Positions 2,800 through 64,000 are shown, numbered from the stretch's first letter. The stretch: 64,000 nucleotides of DNA from Escherichia coli (GCF_002854065.1 NZ_CP024147.1); one strand, 5' to 3'. The notes: generated by a model not told the origin, from the sequence alone. Program-made: numbers and translations.

Positions 2800-3055
2800 T
2801 ACTATGCTCCCGTAAATTCCGATTGGATATCGGCTATGGATTGTCCTGGCCCGCCTTTTGCGGGCAATCATAATCCTGGTCGTTACGGGCGAGTTTTTCC
2901 ATCTTTTGGATGTTTTTTCAGCGTTTTCTGTTGGCTCGATTCATCAGAAAAAATGTTAGCGCGGTCAAGTTTTCACCGTAAAGGTATTTAAAAGGTATTA
3001 TTAAGTAGTATTGTCATCGCGTACCTTACATTACCTGTCATGAAGGAATTAAAAG

Positions 3056-57757: not shown

Positions 57758-58846
57758 ATGAATAACCGGGAAAAGGAGATCCTTGCAATTTTACGGCGTA
57801 ACCCGCTGATTCAGCAGAACGAAATTGCGGACATGCTGCAAATCAGCCGTTCGCGCGTTGCGGCGCATATTATGGATTTAATGCGCAAAGGCCGGATTAA
57901 AGGCAAAGGTTACATTCTCACCGAGCAGGAATACTGCGTAGTGGTGGGGACAATCAATATGGATATTCGCGGGATGGCGGATATCCGTTACCCGCAATCG
58001 GCTTCTCATCCCGGTACAATTCATTGCTCAGCGGGCGGCGTGGGACGCAACATCGCCCACAATCTGGCGCTGTTAGGCCGTGACGTCCATTTGCTTTCAG
58101 TGATTGGCGATGACTTTTATGGCGAAATGCTCCTGGAAGAAACGCGCCGCGCCGGCGTGAATGTCTCCGGCTGCGTTCGTTTACATGGTCAAAGCACATC
58201 GACGTATCTGGCAATTGCCAATCGAGACGATGAAACCGTGCTGGCGATTAACGATACCCATCTGCTGGAACAGTTGACACCGCAACTACTGAACGGGTCG
58301 CGCGATTTACTTCGTCATGCGGGCGTGGTACTGGCTGATTGCAACCTGACAGCCGAGGCGCTGGAATGGGTCTTTACCCTCGCTGGTGAGATCCCGGTGT
58401 TTGTCGATACCGTTTCAGAATTCAAAGCGGGCAAAATCAAACACTGGCTGGCGCATATTCACACCCTGAAACCCACTTTACCGGAGCTGGAAATTTTATG
58501 GGGACAGGCGATCACCAGCGATGCTGACCGTAATGCTGCAGTGAATGCGTTGCATCAGCAAGGTGTTCAGCAACTGTTTGTTTATTTGCCCGATGAGTCA
58601 GTTTATTGCAGCGAAAAGGATGGAGAACAATTTTTGCTGACCGCACCAGCGCATACGACAGTAGACAGTTTTGGTGCTGACGATGGTTTTATGGCGGGCC
58701 TGGTGTATAGCTTTCTGGAAGGAAGCAGTTTCCTTGATAGCGCCCGTTTTGCGATGGCCTGCGCGGCAATTTCGCGCGCCAGCGGCAGCTTAAACAACCC
58801 TACCCTGTCTGCCGATAACGCGCTTTCATTAGTGTCAATGGTGTAA
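57758..58846 (+). CDS. yeiI: Uncharacterised PfkB-family kinase with N-terminal helix-turn-helix domain
   Basis: 362-aa ORF; N-terminus MNNREKEILAILRRNPLIQQNEIADMLQISRSRVAAHIMDLMRKG looks HTH-like; remainder ribokinase-like with DxxGAGD-type motif (FGADDGF). Confidence 0.8.
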   Translation: MNNREKEILAILRRNPLIQQNEIADMLQISRSRVAAHIMDLMRKGRIKGKGYILTEQEYCVVVGTINMDIRGMADIRYPQSASHPGTIHCSAGGVGRNIAHNLALLGRDVHLLSVIGDDFYGEMLLEETRRAGVNVSGCVRLHGQSTSTYLAIANRDDETVLAINDTHLLEQLTPQLLNGSRDLLRHAGVVLADCNLTAEALEWVFTLAGEIPVFVDTVSEFKAGKIKHWLAHIHTLKPTLPELEILWGQAITSDADRNAAVNALHQQGVQQLFVYLPDESVYCSEKDGEQFLLTAPAHTTVDSFGADDGFMAGLVYSFLEGSSFLDSARFAMACAAISRASGSLNNPTLSADNALSLVSMV

Positions 58847-58901
58847 CAATGTTGCCGGATTCGACGCTTGACCGCATCTTATCCGGCTCATAAATCGCAC
58901 A

Positions 58902-60152
58902 CTACGCTAAACCAATAAAGAACCCGGCAATGGTGGCACTCATCAGATTAGAAAGTGTCGCCGCCGCCAGCGCGCGTAAACCAAGCTGGGCGATTTCCGG
59001 CGCACGGTGTGGCGCAACCGCAGAAAACGCCCCCACCACCACCCCGATAGAACCAAAGTTAGCGAAACCGCACAACGCGAAGGAAATAATCGCCACGGTT
59101 TTTGCATCGAGAGTGCCAGCTGTTTGCAGATAGGGTGAGAAATTGAGATAAGCGACAAATTCATTTATTGCCAGTTTCTGTCCAATCAAACTCCCGGCAA
59201 GATTCGCATCAGTCCAGTCAACACCCATTACCCACGCCAGTGGGGCCAGCAGGTAACCTAAAATGGACTCCAGCGAGGCATGTTCAAAACCAAACCAGCC
59301 GCCAACGCCGCCGATAATACCGTTAATTAACGCAATGATGGCAACAAATGCCATCACCACTGTTGCCACACCCGCAGCGATTTTCAGCCCGGTCATCGCC
59401 CCTGTCGCGGCGGCTTCAATAATGCTTTTTGGCGGTGTTTCGGTGAAAGAGAGGTTATTAAAAGAAACCTGCGAAGATTCCGTAGCCGGGCTTAGCATGC
59501 GGGCAAACAAGATCCCGCCGGGGATCGCCATTAACGATGCCGCCAGCAAATATTCCACAGGCACGCCCAGTGCGGCGTAACCAATCATCGTCGAACCAGC
59601 AATTGAGGCCATGCCACTACAAATCGCTGTAAATAACTCATTGCGATTCAGCCGATCGATAAAGGGTTTGACGATTGCCGGAATTTCGTTTTGCCCGAGG
59701 AAAATGGTAGTGACCGCGACGAATGACTCGATCTTGCTGATATTTAACGCTTTCTGGAAGATACCGCCGAGAATGCGAATTAAGATCCCCATCACACCGA
59801 TGTAATAGAGAATACTCACCAGCGCGGTGACGAAGATAATTGCCGGTAACACCCTGAAACCAAAGATAAATCCTGCGCCATCAAACAGCGTGTCCATTTT
59901 CGGCCCGACCAGCGAACCGAAGATAAATGCGCTACCTGCATCGCTGTACGCCATCACTTTATGCACGCCAAAAGCGACTTTTTCAGCGACCCAACGCCCT
60001 GGCGGTAACCAAAGCATAATCCCGCCAATCACAACCTGTAACACTAACGCCGCGCCAACGGTACGCAGGCTGATCTTCTTCTTGTTTACTGACAGTAAAA
60101 ACGCAATCGTCAGCAATACCACCATTCCCAGAACACTTCTCATGACATCCAT
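58902..60152 (-). CDS. nupX: NupC-family concentrative nucleoside transporter
   Basis: 416-aa polytopic ORF MDVMRSVLGMVVLLTIAFLLSVNKKKISLRTVGAAL...; paralogue of psuT in this window. Confidence 0.9.
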   Translation of the reverse strand: MDVMRSVLGMVVLLTIAFLLSVNKKKISLRTVGAALVLQVVIGGIMLWLPPGRWVAEKVAFGVHKVMAYSDAGSAFIFGSLVGPKMDTLFDGAGFIFGFRVLPAIIFVTALVSILYYIGVMGILIRILGGIFQKALNISKIESFVAVTTIFLGQNEIPAIVKPFIDRLNRNELFTAICSGMASIAGSTMIGYAALGVPVEYLLAASLMAIPGGILFARMLSPATESSQVSFNNLSFTETPPKSIIEAAATGAMTGLKIAAGVATVVMAFVAIIALINGIIGGVGGWFGFEHASLESILGYLLAPLAWVMGVDWTDANLAGSLIGQKLAINEFVAYLNFSPYLQTAGTLDAKTVAIISFALCGFANFGSIGVVVGAFSAVAPHRAPEIAQLGLRALAAATLSNLMSATIAGFFIGLA

Positions 60153-60251
60153 AGTTATTATCTCTTCATGTCATATTGGGCGACGGCTTTCTGCCCCTCA
60201 GAAATAGCCGGGCCTGCATCTTGCGATACTGACCCGGCTTGTTATCAACAC

Positions 60252-61193
60252 TTAATGGGTTTTGATGTAGCCGCGCACGCACTCTTCGACTAAGCCCCAG
60301 AACCAGTCGGTATCAATAGTGATGCCGACTTTGGTATTAGCGGGCTTGCCAAGAACGCCCAGCTCGTCGCAGATGGTACGCCCATAGCAAGGGCCACTGT
60401 TGACGTCCACTTCGACGTACATCTCCTGGGTTTTAATGCCATCAGGGTTAATCAGATAACCGATGCAGGTGGCGTCGTGCACCGGGCCGCCAGCCAGCCC
60501 GTAGTTTTCGAACTGGGTTTTGAGAGTGAAGTTCATGATGTCGCTGAACAGTTCTCCGGCAGGGCCGCCTGCCCTTTCCATCCGAGCAATCACATCCGGG
60601 GTGCAAACGGTCTGGTTGGTGAGATCGAGGCCCATCATTACTAATGGAACGCCGGAGGTGAACACCACACGCGCCGCTTCCGGGTCAGCAAAGATGTTGA
60701 ACTCGGCAGATGGGGTGAAGTTGCCAGTACCGTAAGCGCCGCCCATTAGCACAATTTCACGGATTTTCGGCAGGATTGCGGGTTGCATACGCATTGCCAC
60801 CGCGATATTTGACAACGGACCAACCGGCACCAGAGTGATATCGCCATCGCTTGCCATCAGGGTATCAATGATGTATTTCACCGCGTGGGTACTTTCTGCC
60901 TGGCGGGTCAGCGGCTCGAATACCGGGCCATCCAGTCCGGTTTCACCGTGAATATTATCGGCAACGATTTGTTGACGCATAATGGGTTGCGGCATCCCCG
61001 CATAAACCGGAACATTAATCTCCAGTTTCTGGCAAACATTCAGGCCATTAATTAATGTTTTATCAAGCGTCTGATTACCCGCAACAATGGTGATACCTAA
61101 TAAATCAATCGCCGGATGTTTCGCCGCCATCATTATAGCAATAGCATCATCATGACCCGGATCACAATCCAGAATAATTTTTCTCTTTTCCAT
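60252..61193 (-). CDS. rihB: Pyrimidine-specific ribonucleoside hydrolase
   Basis: 313-aa [26 protein letters not shown]... with the nucleoside hydrolase DxDxxxDD motif. Confidence 0.9.
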
Positions 61194-61361
61194 TGTTTAT
61201 TTCCTCTGTTTCCAGTTGCGTTATTTTTTCTACAGCAAAGAAATTTCGATCGGGCCGATGATTGAATCTTAACAACAGCGTACGTATGCTAAATATGAGA
61301 AATCTCATAGCGGATAAACATCGTGAAAGAAATCCACAATAATGATCTTAAGCTGCAATTG

Positions 61362-62021
61362 ATGAGTGAATCCGCGTTTAAGGATTGCTTTTTAACGGAT
61401 GTTTCAGCCGATACGCGGCTGTTTCATTTTTTAGCGCGTGACTACATTGTGCAGGAAGGGCAACAGCCGTCCTGGCTGTTTTACCTGACGCGAGGCCGCG
61501 CCAGGCTTTACGCCACGCTAGCTAATGGTCGCGTGTCGCTGATCGATTTCTTTGCCGCCCCCTGTTTTATTGGCGAGATTGAGTTAATCGATAAAGACCA
61601 TGAACCACGTGCAGTACAGGCGATTGAAGAGTGTTGGTACCTTGCGCTCCCTATGAAACATTACCGTCCGCTGTTATTAAACGATACCCTATTTTTACGA
61701 AAGCTCTGCGTTTCTTTAAGCCATAAAAATTATCGCAATATTGTTTCTTTAACTCAGAATCAATCATTTCCGTTAGTGAACCGCCTGGCAGCTTTTATAT
61801 TACTCTCGCAGGAAGGTGATCTTTATCACGAAAAACATACCCAGGCAGCAGAGTATTTAGGCGTTTCTTATCGACATCTTTTATATGTTCTCGCGCAATT
61901 CATTCACGACGGTTTATTAATTAAAAGCAAGAAAGGGTATCTCATTAAAAACAGAAAGCAGTTGTCAGGACTGGCGCTGGAGATGGACCCGGAGAATAAA
62001 TTCTCCGGGATGATGCAGTAA
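61362..62021 (+). CDS. yeiL: CRP/FNR-family transcriptional regulator
   Basis: Translation [33 protein letters not shown]...; 219 aa after start trimming; C-terminal HTH. Confidence 0.85.
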
Positions 62022-62039
62022 AAATTATTTGCAATAGCG

Positions 62040-62085
62040 CGATTGCCGGATGCAACGCTTAATAAGCGAGTACATCCGGCAATGA
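62040..62085. repeat. REP-like palindrome between yeiL and psuT
   Basis: gcgattgccggatgcaacgcttaataagcgagtacatccggcaatg contains inverted ccggatg / catccgg arms. Confidence 0.55.
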
Positions 62086-62088
62086 AAC

Positions 62089-63339
62089 TCAAGCTAAACC
62101 AATAAAGAACCCGGCAATGGTCGCGCTCATCAGGTTGGAAAGCGTTGCTGCTGCCAGCGCCCGTAAACCAAGCTGGGCGATTTCCGGAGCACGTTTTGGC
62201 GAAATAGCCGAAAATGCCCCAACGACAACACCGATAGAACCAAAGTTAGCAAAACCACAAAGCGCAAAGGAGATAATCGCAATGGTTTTCACTTCCAGCG
62301 TGCCGCCCGTTTGCAGGTATGGGGAGAAACTCAGGTAAGCGACGAATTCGTTAATCGCCAGTTTCTGCCCAATCAGGCTACCCGCAAGGTTGGCATCACT
62401 CCAGTCCACACCCATGATCCACGCCAGCGGTGCCAGCACATAGCCAAAAATACTTTCCAGAGAAGCATTGGCGAAGCCAAACCAGCCGCCAATTCCGCCG
62501 ATAATGCCATTGATCAGCGCAATAATTGCCACAAATGCCATTACCACCGTCGCCACACCAGCGGCGATTTTCAGCCCGGTCATCGCACCGCTCGCCGCCG
62601 CTTCGATAAAGCTTTTTGGCGGCGTTTCGCTGAACGACAGATTTTCAAATGTGACCTGCGAAGGCTCGGTTGCCGGGCTAAGAATACGTGCAAACAAAAT
62701 CCCGCCAGGGATCGCCATCAGCGATGCCGCTAACAGGTAGTCAATTGGTACGCCCATTCCGGCATAACCAATCATCATCGAACCCGCAATGGACGCCATC
62801 CCGCTACAAATTGCGGTAAACAACTCGTTGCGATTCATGCGATCGATAAACGGTTTAACGATCGCCGGGATCTCATTTTGCCCGAGGAAAATAGTGGTAA
62901 CCGCAACAAAAGATTCGATTTTGCTGATGTTGAGGGCTTTCTGGAAAATGCTACCAAGGATGCGAATCAGCAGCCCCATCACGCCAATGTAGTACAGCAG
63001 ACTAATGAGCGCAGTGACGAAGATAATCGCCGGGAGTACGCGAAAGGCGAAGATAAAACCCGCACCGTCAAAGAGGACATCCATTTTCGGCCCGACCAGC
63101 GAACCAAAAATGAAGGCGCTACCGGCATCACTGTAAGACATCACTTTATGAACGCCTAATGCCGCCTGTTCTACAGCCCACTTTCCCGGCGGAAAATAGA
63201 GCATGATGCCACCAATAGCAATTTGCAGCAGTAGTGCGGCTCCAACCGTACGCAAACTGATGCTCTTTTTATTCACTGACAACAGAAATGCTATTGCCAG
63301 TAACACCACCATCCCCACAACACTTCTCATTATGTCCAT
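62089..63339 (-). CDS. psuT: NupC-family pseudouridine/nucleoside transporter
   Basis: 416-aa polytopic ORF MDIMRSVVGMVVLLAIAFLLSVNKKSISLRTVGAALLLQIA...; immediately upstream of psuG. Confidence 0.9.
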   Translation of the reverse strand: MDIMRSVVGMVVLLAIAFLLSVNKKSISLRTVGAALLLQIAIGGIMLYFPPGKWAVEQAALGVHKVMSYSDAGSAFIFGSLVGPKMDVLFDGAGFIFAFRVLPAIIFVTALISLLYYIGVMGLLIRILGSIFQKALNISKIESFVAVTTIFLGQNEIPAIVKPFIDRMNRNELFTAICSGMASIAGSMMIGYAGMGVPIDYLLAASLMAIPGGILFARILSPATEPSQVTFENLSFSETPPKSFIEAAASGAMTGLKIAAGVATVVMAFVAIIALINGIIGGIGGWFGFANASLESIFGYVLAPLAWIMGVDWSDANLAGSLIGQKLAINEFVAYLSFSPYLQTGGTLEVKTIAIISFALCGFANFGSIGVVVGAFSAISPKRAPEIAQLGLRALAAATLSNLMSATIAGFFIGLA

Positions 63340-63432
63340 AATGATTTTCCCTTCATGCCAGTAAACCCGGCGTCAGCGCCAGGTTTTGGTATGTTTGATG
63401 AGTACGGGCGACGGCTTTCTGCCCGTCAGAAA

Positions 63433-64000
63433 TTAACCCGCGAGACGCTGGTATTCTTTGGCAATTTCACTCGCCAGAATGGCGTTGTTGAACACCAGTT
63501 GGATGTTGGATTTCAGGCTGTCACCGCCGGTCAGTTCAGCAACGCGCGCCAGCAGGAATGGCGTACTTTCTTTACCAATAACACCCTGCGCTTCAGCTTC
63601 AGCTACCGCCTGATCGATCGCCGCATTGATAGTGTGTTCCGGCATCGCAAACTGTTCCGGGATCGGGTTCGCTACCACGAGGCCACCGTTCAGCCCGCTT
63701 TGCCATTTCACCGCCATTGCACGGGCAATTTCGCTGGCGCTGTCGAGACGAATGCTGACGTCAAACGGGCTGGTGCGGCAGAAAAACGCAGGCAGCGCTT
63801 TAGTCTGATAGCCAATTAACGGCACACCGAAGGTTTCTAAATACTCAGTGGTTAATCCTAAATCGAGAATAGATTTCGCCCCGGCACAAACAACGGTGAC
63901 ATTAGTATTTGCCAGTTCTTGCAAATCGGCAGAAATATCGAAGGTATGTTCCGCCCCGCGATGCACACCACCAATTCCCCCGGTGGCAAATACTTTAATT
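63433..64000 (-). CDS. psuG: Pseudouridine-5'-phosphate glycosidase, 3' part only (gene continues beyond window end)
   Basis: Minus-strand frame open to the window end; C-terminal translation ...IGKESTPFLLARVAELTGGDSLKSNIQLVFNNAILASEIAKEYQRLAG recognised as PsuG/YeiN. Confidence 0.85.
   Translation of the reverse strand, partial: IKVFATGGIGGVHRGAEHTFDISADLQELANTNVTVVCAGAKSILDLGLTTEYLETFGVPLIGYQTKALPAFFCRTSPFDVSIRLDSASEIARAMAVKWQSGLNGGLVVANPIPEQFAMPEHTINAAIDQAVAEAEAQGVIGKESTPFLLARVAELTGGDSLKSNIQLVFNNAILASEIAKEYQRLAG

Follow-up and report, generated by a model that had tools for sequence, protein, structure and literature searches.

Organization of the nupX-psuT region

The region described here belongs to a 64-kb stretch of Escherichia coli DNA (NZ_CP024147.1; the window, in what follows) and contains, in the E. 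coli gene order yeiH-nfo-yeiI-nupX-rihB-yeiL-psuT-psuG, two paralogous nucleoside transporter genes, nupX and psuT, whose leaders share a 28-nt motif (Table 1). The gene calls for yeiI, nupX, rihB, yeiL, psuT and psuG are correct and were annotated previously, and at the level of gene content the region holds nothing new. What is new here is a covariation-supported, lineage-restricted leader hairpin (hairpin 1, HP1), absent from Rfam 15, which overlaps the shared motif upstream of both transporter genes.

Table 1. Features of the nupX-psuT region in window coordinates
Feature	Position	Strand	Description
yeiI	57758..58846	+	HTH_24 and PfkB kinase-like protein (gene call, Pfam)
REP (repetitive extragenic palindromic)-like hairpin 3' of nupX	58854..58887	-	3' limit of paralogue similarity
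nupX	58902..60152	-	CNT-family transporter, 416 aa, psuT paralogue
HP1, nupX leader	60176..60198	-	AGGGGC-AGAAAGCCGUC-GCCCAA; GGGC/GCCC core alone pairs, -7.3 kcal/mol
28-nt motif, nupX copy	60178..60205	-	motif search
Strong hairpin after rihB stop	60206..60239	-	-24.1 kcal/mol, then AUUUCUG; directly 5' of the nupX motif
rihB	60252..61193	-	gene upstream of nupX, between both transporter genes
yeiL	61323..62021	+	CRP/FNR-type regulator, between both transporter genes
REP-like hairpin 3' of psuT	62045..62080	-	3' limit of paralogue similarity
psuT	62089..63339	-	CNT-family transporter, 416 aa
psuT Shine-Dalgarno AAGGGA	63348..63353	-	sequence
HP2 (hairpin 2)	63363..63386	-	AAACCUGGCG-CUGA-CGCCGGGUUU; terminator-like, -14.9 kcal/mol, ~10 nt upstream of the psuT Shine-Dalgarno
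C/A-rich single-stranded linker	63387..63403	-	ACUCAUCAAACAUACCA; core AUCA-NNN-AUACC conserved across genera; not in the window's nupX leader
HP1, psuT leader	63404..63426	-	ACGGGC-AGAAAGCCGUC-GCCCGU; -10.0 kcal/mol; starts 6 nt past the psuG stop
28-nt motif, psuT copy	63406..63433	-	motif search, corrected coordinates
psuG stop codon	63433-63435	-	5' of the psuT leader

The initial annotation of this DNA had described nupX and psuT as genes for highly similar 416-aa proteins lying in direct orientation about 3.2 kb apart, and each of these statements, coordinates included, was borne out: the two proteins align without gaps at 88% identity and 95% similarity, and the gene starts are separated by 3187 nt. 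NupX scores above the Pfam cut-offs for all three domains of the CNT (NupC) family (Nucleos_tra2_N, 79.8 bits; Gate, 56.3 bits; Nucleos_tra2_C, 241.6 bits), so that the pair carries the full domain set of this family without any difference from it, which is the already known part of the locus. NupX and PsuT have been described as paralogues before (PMC11241209), NupX being a low-efficiency uridine/cytidine transporter and PsuT having been assigned by operon context (PMC11241209). Synonymous divergence (dS) between the two genes is saturated (1.44), and only 89 of 192 fourfold-degenerate sites (46%) are identical. In a pairwise alignment, the DNA similarity of the paralogues begins exactly at the shared motif, spans the coding sequence and stops at the REP-like hairpins past the stop codons. 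In an identity-based neighbor-joining tree (no bootstrap), the nupX genes of seven genera form a single clade, and all rihB-linked transporters constitute one clade nested among the psuG-linked ones, which indicates a single old nupX/psuT duplication within Enterobacteriaceae. Each transporter gene is followed by one of these REP-like hairpins (GCCGGAT...ATCCGGC, -20 to -22 kcal/mol), with a weak Rfam naRNA4 match at 58843-58888.

A shared and constrained upstream motif

The motif ATTTCTGA[G/C]GGGCAGAAAGCCGTCGCCC occurs exactly twice in the window with three mismatches allowed, no match at all being obtained in 100 shuffles, and its nupX and psuT copies agree at 27 of 28 positions. The upstream similarity proposed initially is thus real, with the psuT copy having been placed ~23 nt too low (at ~63385-63410). 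The motif is also distinct from the ribosome-binding region, as it ends 23 nt (nupX) or 64 nt (psuT) before the ATG. Between the motif and the ribosome-binding site, the psuT leader is longer by 41 nt, including a hairpin, all of which are missing from the nupX leader. Across 5,426 E. coli genomes, a BLAST search (blind to copies with a different loop) located the motif at a median of two and a maximum of three places per genome, in contrast to the many copies expected of REP elements or bacterial interspersed mosaic elements (BIMEs). A dispersed repeat or a regulon-wide site was rejected on the basis of these two copies per genome, together with the lack of any further covariance-model match in the window.

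Because 27 of 28 positions are identical despite the saturated dS, the motif is not a neutral leftover. Conservation extends over the entire leader of ~95 nt: the E. coli psuT leader is 78–80% identical to the psuT leaders of Citrobacter and Kluyvera and 78% identical to the nupX leader of Klebsiella spallanzanii, far above the conservation of synonymous sites (44–48% identity at fourfold-degenerate positions in the same cross-genus comparisons). The assumption that the near-perfect identity of the two E. coli copies was simply kept since the duplication is not supported, as this identity probably reflects in part an Escherichia-specific homogenization of flank and loop. Indeed, the 5' flank ATTTCTGA and the loop AGAAAGCCGUC are Escherichia-specific states, variable in other genera and common to E. 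coli psuT, Escherichia albertii psuT (at a locus without nupX) and all E. coli nupX alleles; the stem and 3' flank of E. coli nupX still resemble the nupX leaders of Buttiauxella and Kluyvera. Such a mosaic suggests either short-tract homogenization (gene conversion) or parallel selection in Escherichia. The sharing of Escherichia-specific flank (ATTTCTGA) and loop (AGAAAGCCGTC) states would also suit a motif that has no function at all, its identity being a leftover of the duplication or a recent short gene-conversion tract. We consider this extremely improbable in view of the age of the duplication (saturated dS and a nupX clade of seven genera), the persistence of the HP1 core across genera with compensatory changes and the excess of leader identity over that of neutral sites.

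HP1, a conserved hairpin of the sense strand

HP1 is conserved and pairs on the sense strand with compensatory changes. It consists of a 6-bp stem (NNGGGC with GCCCNN) enclosing an 11-nt loop, a bulged A and one further G-C pair, and the 3' side of its loop, G-C-N-G-U, is nearly invariant (G19, C20, G22 and U23). Among leaders gathered from related genomes (via one contig scan, eleven contig look-ups and several E. coli records), HP1 was found in 24 distinct sequences from about ten enterobacterial genera. The 6-pair stem is paired in 93.1% of cells of this alignment, a value rising to 93.5% upon inclusion of the extra G-C pair, with four of the seven pairs changed on both sides; in an 18-sequence seed alignment, 94.4% of cells are paired. 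Three to four pairs show compensatory change, the covariation score was reached by none of 500 shuffles, and slid registers drop to 32–54% paired. HP1 therefore displays what is expected of a structured cis-regulatory RNA, namely compensatory and wobble pairing above shuffled and slid-register controls, although from few independent events.

The compensatory stem variants are ACGGGC/GCCCGU in E. coli psuT and Superficieibacter, AUGGGC/GCCCAU in Buttiauxella and in nupX of one E. coli locus (L004), GCGGGC/GCCCGC in Klebsiella michiganensis, K. spallanzanii and Entomohabitans nupX, and ACAGGC/GCCUGU in psuT of Enterobacter and Leclercia; the extra pair shows a compensatory change from G-C to A-U. 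G·U or U·G wobbles occur in E. albertii, in other E. coli psuT alleles, in Kluyvera nupX and at locus L098, and three additional loci (L098-L100) contributed no new stem variants beyond the U·G closing pair of L098. In K-12 and most other E. coli, the nupX hairpin reads AUGGGC..GCCCAA, with a U-A pair that is the compensatory partner of the C-G pair in psuT HP1. The strain studied here has a G·A mismatch (60177/60197) in place of this usual U-A pair, which makes the hairpin weaker (-7.3 kcal/mol, compared with about -8.3 kcal/mol for the paired form).

HP1 and the second hairpin of the psuT leader, HP2, were both picked independently by RNAalifold. Six distinct sequences have G·U or U·G pairs in HP1, and HP2 carries a conserved U·G; the opposite strand would have A·C mismatches at these positions, which argues for an RNA hairpin of the sense strand. 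With a covariance model derived from the seed alignment, the leaders scored 35–45 bits in the sense orientation (45 bits for psuT HP1) and 17 bits or less in the antisense orientation. The model returned no credible match elsewhere in 730 kb, a set that comprised the remainder of the window and 70 loci with more distant CNT genes. No family of Rfam 15 matches HP1, the best overlapping one being isrJ (20.1 bits vs. a cut-off of 37, E = 3.1).

A DNA operator, as originally suggested for the shared element, would be a palindromic double-stranded site for YeiL, for the helix-turn-helix (HTH) domain of YeiI or for another factor, acting on an internal promoter of the transporter gene. The inverted repeat GACGG...CCGTC, to which this suggestion was tied, does not qualify as a conserved feature: it is perfect in the psuT copy only (GAGGG...CCGTC, with one mismatch, in the nupX copy) and was rejected as a structural element, with 68–76% of cells paired, zero compensatory change and a score not above shuffles. 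The candidate repeat TTTCTG-N5-CAGAAA was likewise rejected (56% paired, no covariation). The core GGGC-N11-GCCC is, however, a palindrome in DNA as well, two HTH-domain regulators are encoded next door, and the targets of YeiL are unassigned. We nevertheless regard an operator as quite unlikely because HP1 tracks neither yeiL nor yeiI and because a consensus scan located no promoter-like site in either leader. Thus, HP1 is present without yeiL at the locus in Citrobacter, K. michiganensis and Leclercia, present without yeiI in Buttiauxella and K. spallanzanii, and absent in Serratia, where the operon kinase carries an HTH domain. Moreover, the element is located between cistrons inside an operon, 6 nt past the psuG stop codon, and its half-sites vary by compensatory or wobble-type substitutions that are strand-asymmetric, a pattern unexpected for protein read-out of DNA. 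What stands of the initial proposal that the duplication included an operator or leader element is the second alternative, an element copied along with the transporter gene and constrained ever since (27/28 identical positions vs. 46% at fourfold-degenerate sites).

Linker, HP2 and the remainder of the leaders

In psuT-type leaders, as well as in the K. spallanzanii nupX leader, HP1 is followed by the linker, HP2 and the Shine-Dalgarno sequence. HP2 looks like a weak intrinsic terminator as judged by its modeled fold: it has the G+C-rich 10-bp stem and 4-nt loop of a terminator and is flanked by an A-tract on its 5' side and a short U-tract on its 3' side (UUUACUGG in E. coli, UUUUCAGG or UUUUCCAC in other genera). 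Across genera, its stem is kept while the loop is free. HP1 and HP2 fold independently, HP2 being the minimum-energy fold in six of six genera with the 5' arm of HP1 blocked. Farther downstream, RNAalifold reported a weak A/U hairpin (CAUUAU-GGAY-AUAAUG) around the psuT start codon (63330-63345), whose conservation is confounded by that of the MDIM coding sequence.

This architecture, with a conserved hairpin and loop, an unpaired linker, a terminator-like hairpin and then a Shine-Dalgarno sequence, combined with a ~95-nt leader much more conserved than synonymous sites, would suit a ligand- or protein-dependent attenuator, in which HP1 and the linker would form a sensor deciding on termination at HP2 (a riboswitch-like aptamer or a site for an antiterminator protein). 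Since HP2 folds regardless of HP1, a classical alternative-fold attenuator is unsupported; no pairing competes with HP2 in the six genera, loop-linker covariation was not seen by eye in ~15 sequences, no Rfam family matches, and HP1 persists where HP2 was lost. An attenuator of this kind is thus unlikely. Two related candidates were rejected separately: a loop-linker pseudoknot (no consistent complementarity by eye in ~15 leaders) and ribosome- or HP1-dependent antitermination of HP2 (no alternative fold found).

Other candidate signals tried and rejected include the following. Neither leader has a sigma-70 promoter matching in the consensus scan, and no sigma-54-like site was seen by eye, a tool-based scan for sigma-54 not having been made. 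A leader peptide or upstream open reading frame (AUG AAG GGA...) is conserved only in Escherichia, Citrobacter and Kluyvera and has no ribosome-binding site; an N-terminally extended reading frame over HP1 is interrupted by an in-frame stop at -36. To the ops consensus of RfaH (GGCGGTAG), compared on the non-template strand, only a partial resemblance was found (GCCGTCG in E. coli, GCGGTCG in most other genera). A bacterial selenocysteine insertion sequence (SECIS) would require an in-frame UGA at a fixed distance upstream of a GGUC-type loop, which is inconsistent with the UAA stop codon of psuG in E. coli, Kluyvera and Enterobacter and with nupX leaders having no nearby stop codon.

Distribution and history of the leaders

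HP1 is linked to the transporter gene in two operon contexts, psuG-linked and rihB-linked, and the genera in which it is found are Escherichia, Citrobacter, Kluyvera, Klebsiella, Enterobacter, Leclercia, Buttiauxella, Superficieibacter and Entomohabitans. Only the psuK-psuG-psuT module is present in Citrobacter, K. michiganensis, Leclercia and E. albertii, and only the yeiL/rihB-nupX module in Buttiauxella, K. spallanzanii and Superficieibacter; both are found in E. coli, Kluyvera and Entomohabitans in one order and in Enterobacter hormaechei in the other. The two operon modules appear, from this comparison of gene orders, to have been shuffled or lost independently. The order of modules in the fruA-nfo interval (L084-L092, L098) differs by genus. 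All transporter leaders of these genera carry HP1 except the psuT leader of Entomohabitans.

The spacing of HP1 from the upstream cistron depends on the context, from 6–10 nt past the psuG stop in psuT leaders to 45–65 nt past the rihB stop, behind a strong hairpin, in nupX leaders. Coupling to the stop codon is therefore not general. The hairpin after rihB resembles a terminator between rihB and the nupX leader; the hairpins that occupy this position in orthologous loci differ from it in sequence. As HP1 and HP2 are both carried by psuT-type leaders and by the K. spallanzanii nupX leader, the ancestral leader had both hairpins. Several nupX lineages, including that of E. coli, are without HP2 yet have kept HP1; in Buttiauxella and Kluyvera nupX, HP2 seems to have been removed by a deletion between two direct repeats, CCUGGC and CUGGC. 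A long psuG-psuT hairpin of another type, CCUGAAAGG...CCUUUCAGG, with a covarying inner part, was observed in Serratia, Hafnia and a 'Klebsiella sp.', and the psuT leader of Entomohabitans has a 13-bp hairpin at the HP1 site (L009-L012, ~2830-3000; L090, ~100-208, for these loci together).

Polymorphism and neighboring genes in E. coli

The window is 100% identical to strain CUWW06 and is not K-12. It represents a rare E. coli haplotype, given that the region is at least 99% identical in just 2–3 of ~5,420 complete-genome records. Haplotypes at 57758-64000 are unusually divergent for a single species, with a dS of 0.31 between psuT of the window and that of the GTDB E. coli representative (L004).

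Recombination between nupX and psuT, which had been anticipated as a source of rihB-yeiL deletions, was not seen: 5418 of 5426 complete genomes retain rihB-yeiL, and the inspected deletions have other end points. One strain has a deletion joining yeiI' to psuK (L003:6001-7803), another an IS1-mediated deletion from psuG to rihB' (L095:1800-3354), and in one strain nupX is frameshifted (L096:1345-2594). The interior of nupX is lost in ~977 of 5,420 complete E. coli records (~18%). What remains in this allele is the leader together with 66 nt at the 5' end and the final ~70 nt of the gene (L002:4192-4257; L093:6683-6748); its leader has three extra changes, all outside the HP1 stem. The Term-seq data of Adams et al. 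(2021; PMC7815308, supplement) also contain an antisense RNA 3' end inside nupX (MG1655 coordinate 2253044, + strand), which may be due to read-through from yeiI.

For yeiI, the view of the encoded protein as an HTH domain fused to a ribokinase-like kinase is confirmed by the HTH_24 and PfkB domains found, and the absence of an assigned substrate agrees with the literature, in which the function of YeiI is still given as unknown (PMC9061257). YeiI is 39% identical to E. coli PsuK and 52% identical, over the full length including the HTH domain, to the HTH-fused kinase whose gene takes the place of psuK in the psu operon of Serratia (L009:774-1889); the PfkB motif GAGD of PsuK reads GADD in YeiI. 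Judging by these similarities, YeiI could be a regulator or sensor descended from an HTH-PsuK ancestor.

Proposed role of the leader

The reading that we put forward, and which we hold to be evenly balanced between right and wrong, is that the shared motif constitutes the core of an old structured mRNA leader acting in cis to tune transporter output, by a mechanism that we infer from comparative sequence data. Such a leader would travel with the CNT transporter cistron, HP1 on the sense strand being the selected feature, and would set, in cis on the RNA, the amount of transporter relative to the products of the upstream enzyme genes (psuKG or rihB). HP2 would act as a partial intra-operon terminator, and HP1 would fold independently of it, serving either as a binding site for a factor or as protection for the 5' end of a processed transporter mRNA. 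A specific partner is suggested by the loop bases that hardly vary (G19, C20, G22 and U23), whereas the unrelated hairpins found at the HP1 site in Serratia, in Hafnia and in Entomohabitans psuT would rather suit a generic structural role, for example as a barrier in processing or stability or as a folding insulator.

Several observations weigh against this proposal. The independent compensatory events in HP1 are few (~4–6), and three of its stem pairs never vary. A 13-bp hairpin of unrelated sequence takes the place of HP1 upstream of Entomohabitans psuT, as does another unrelated, long hairpin in Serratia and Hafnia; this fits a generic structural role and leaves the conserved loop unexplained. 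The retention of HP1 in nupX leaders without HP2 means that the two hairpins are not an obligatory pair. The U-tract of HP2 comprises 3–4 U rather than at least 5 U in 8 nt, and HP2 is not listed by a consensus terminator scan. Finally, the one published 3'-end supplement consulted shows no RNA end at the psuG-psuT junction, the operon being barely expressed there.

The same segment could in principle give rise to a trans-acting small RNA (sRNA), a ~75-nt species (HP1, linker and HP2) derived from the 3' end of psuG mRNA with the C/A-rich linker as its seed. Its shape would resemble that of sRNAs derived from 3' untranslated regions, and the insignificant full-length Rfam isrJ alignment (E = 3.1) covers exactly 63362-63436. 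We consider this very unlikely, given a tail of just 3–4 U, the lack of an RNA end at the junction in the supplement mentioned above and the position of the element, which is always 10 nt from the ribosome-binding site of the transporter gene and moved with that gene and not with psuG. Pairing of the linker with GcvB was rejected by a crude test, in which the full-length duplex energy was no better than that of shuffles.

A comparison of the proposed cis-acting leader with three known systems reveals partial similarities as well as substantial differences. The rph-pyrE operon of E. coli has an intercistronic attenuator at which the terminating ribosome directly blocks a terminator hairpin; in common with it, the psuT leader places a terminator hairpin between an upstream cistron and a gene of pyrimidine metabolism, with a stop codon a few nucleotides before the structure. 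Here, however, the stop codon abuts HP1 and not HP2, blocking HP1 leaves HP2 unchanged, and nupX HP1 is far from a stop codon. The malE-malF junction exemplifies intercistronic stabilizer hairpins or REP elements, and, as in this case, a stable stem-loop between a soluble-protein and a membrane-transporter cistron could set differential expression; the unrelated hairpins at the HP1 site in Serratia, Hafnia and Entomohabitans add to the likeness. In contrast to such elements, HP1, with its stem of 6–7 bp and its conserved loop, is present twice per genome and is linked to the downstream rather than the upstream gene. The boxB element of the lambda nut sites is a small protein-binding hairpin with the stem GCCCU/AGGGC and a GNRA-like pentaloop; HP1 shares with it a short G+C stem (GGGC/GCCC), a sequence-specific loop and a position upstream of a terminator, but has an 11-nt loop, is not accompanied by a boxA-like element and has no partner protein that is known or encoded nearby.

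A bolder and, in our estimate, improbable interpretation would be that the leader of ~95 nt (HP1, AUCA-NNN-AUACC and HP2) is an undescribed sensor RNA, either resembling a riboswitch or recognized by an RNA-binding regulator dedicated to it, gating pyrimidine/pseudouridine nucleoside transporters in Enterobacteriaceae. If so, the joint change of loop and flank in both Escherichia leaders would represent co-evolution with a partner.

Overall, the scope of these findings is narrow, one bacterial family and two genes, and the mechanism of the leader is a proposal. Within this scope, an ancient duplication and several operon rearrangements have left HP1 linked to a nucleoside-transporter gene. If HP1 controls transporter output, it would provide a handle on the barely known regulation of the psuKGT and rihB-nupX operons, which is relevant to pseudouridine salvage, engineered pseudouridine production and nucleoside-drug uptake by gut bacteria.

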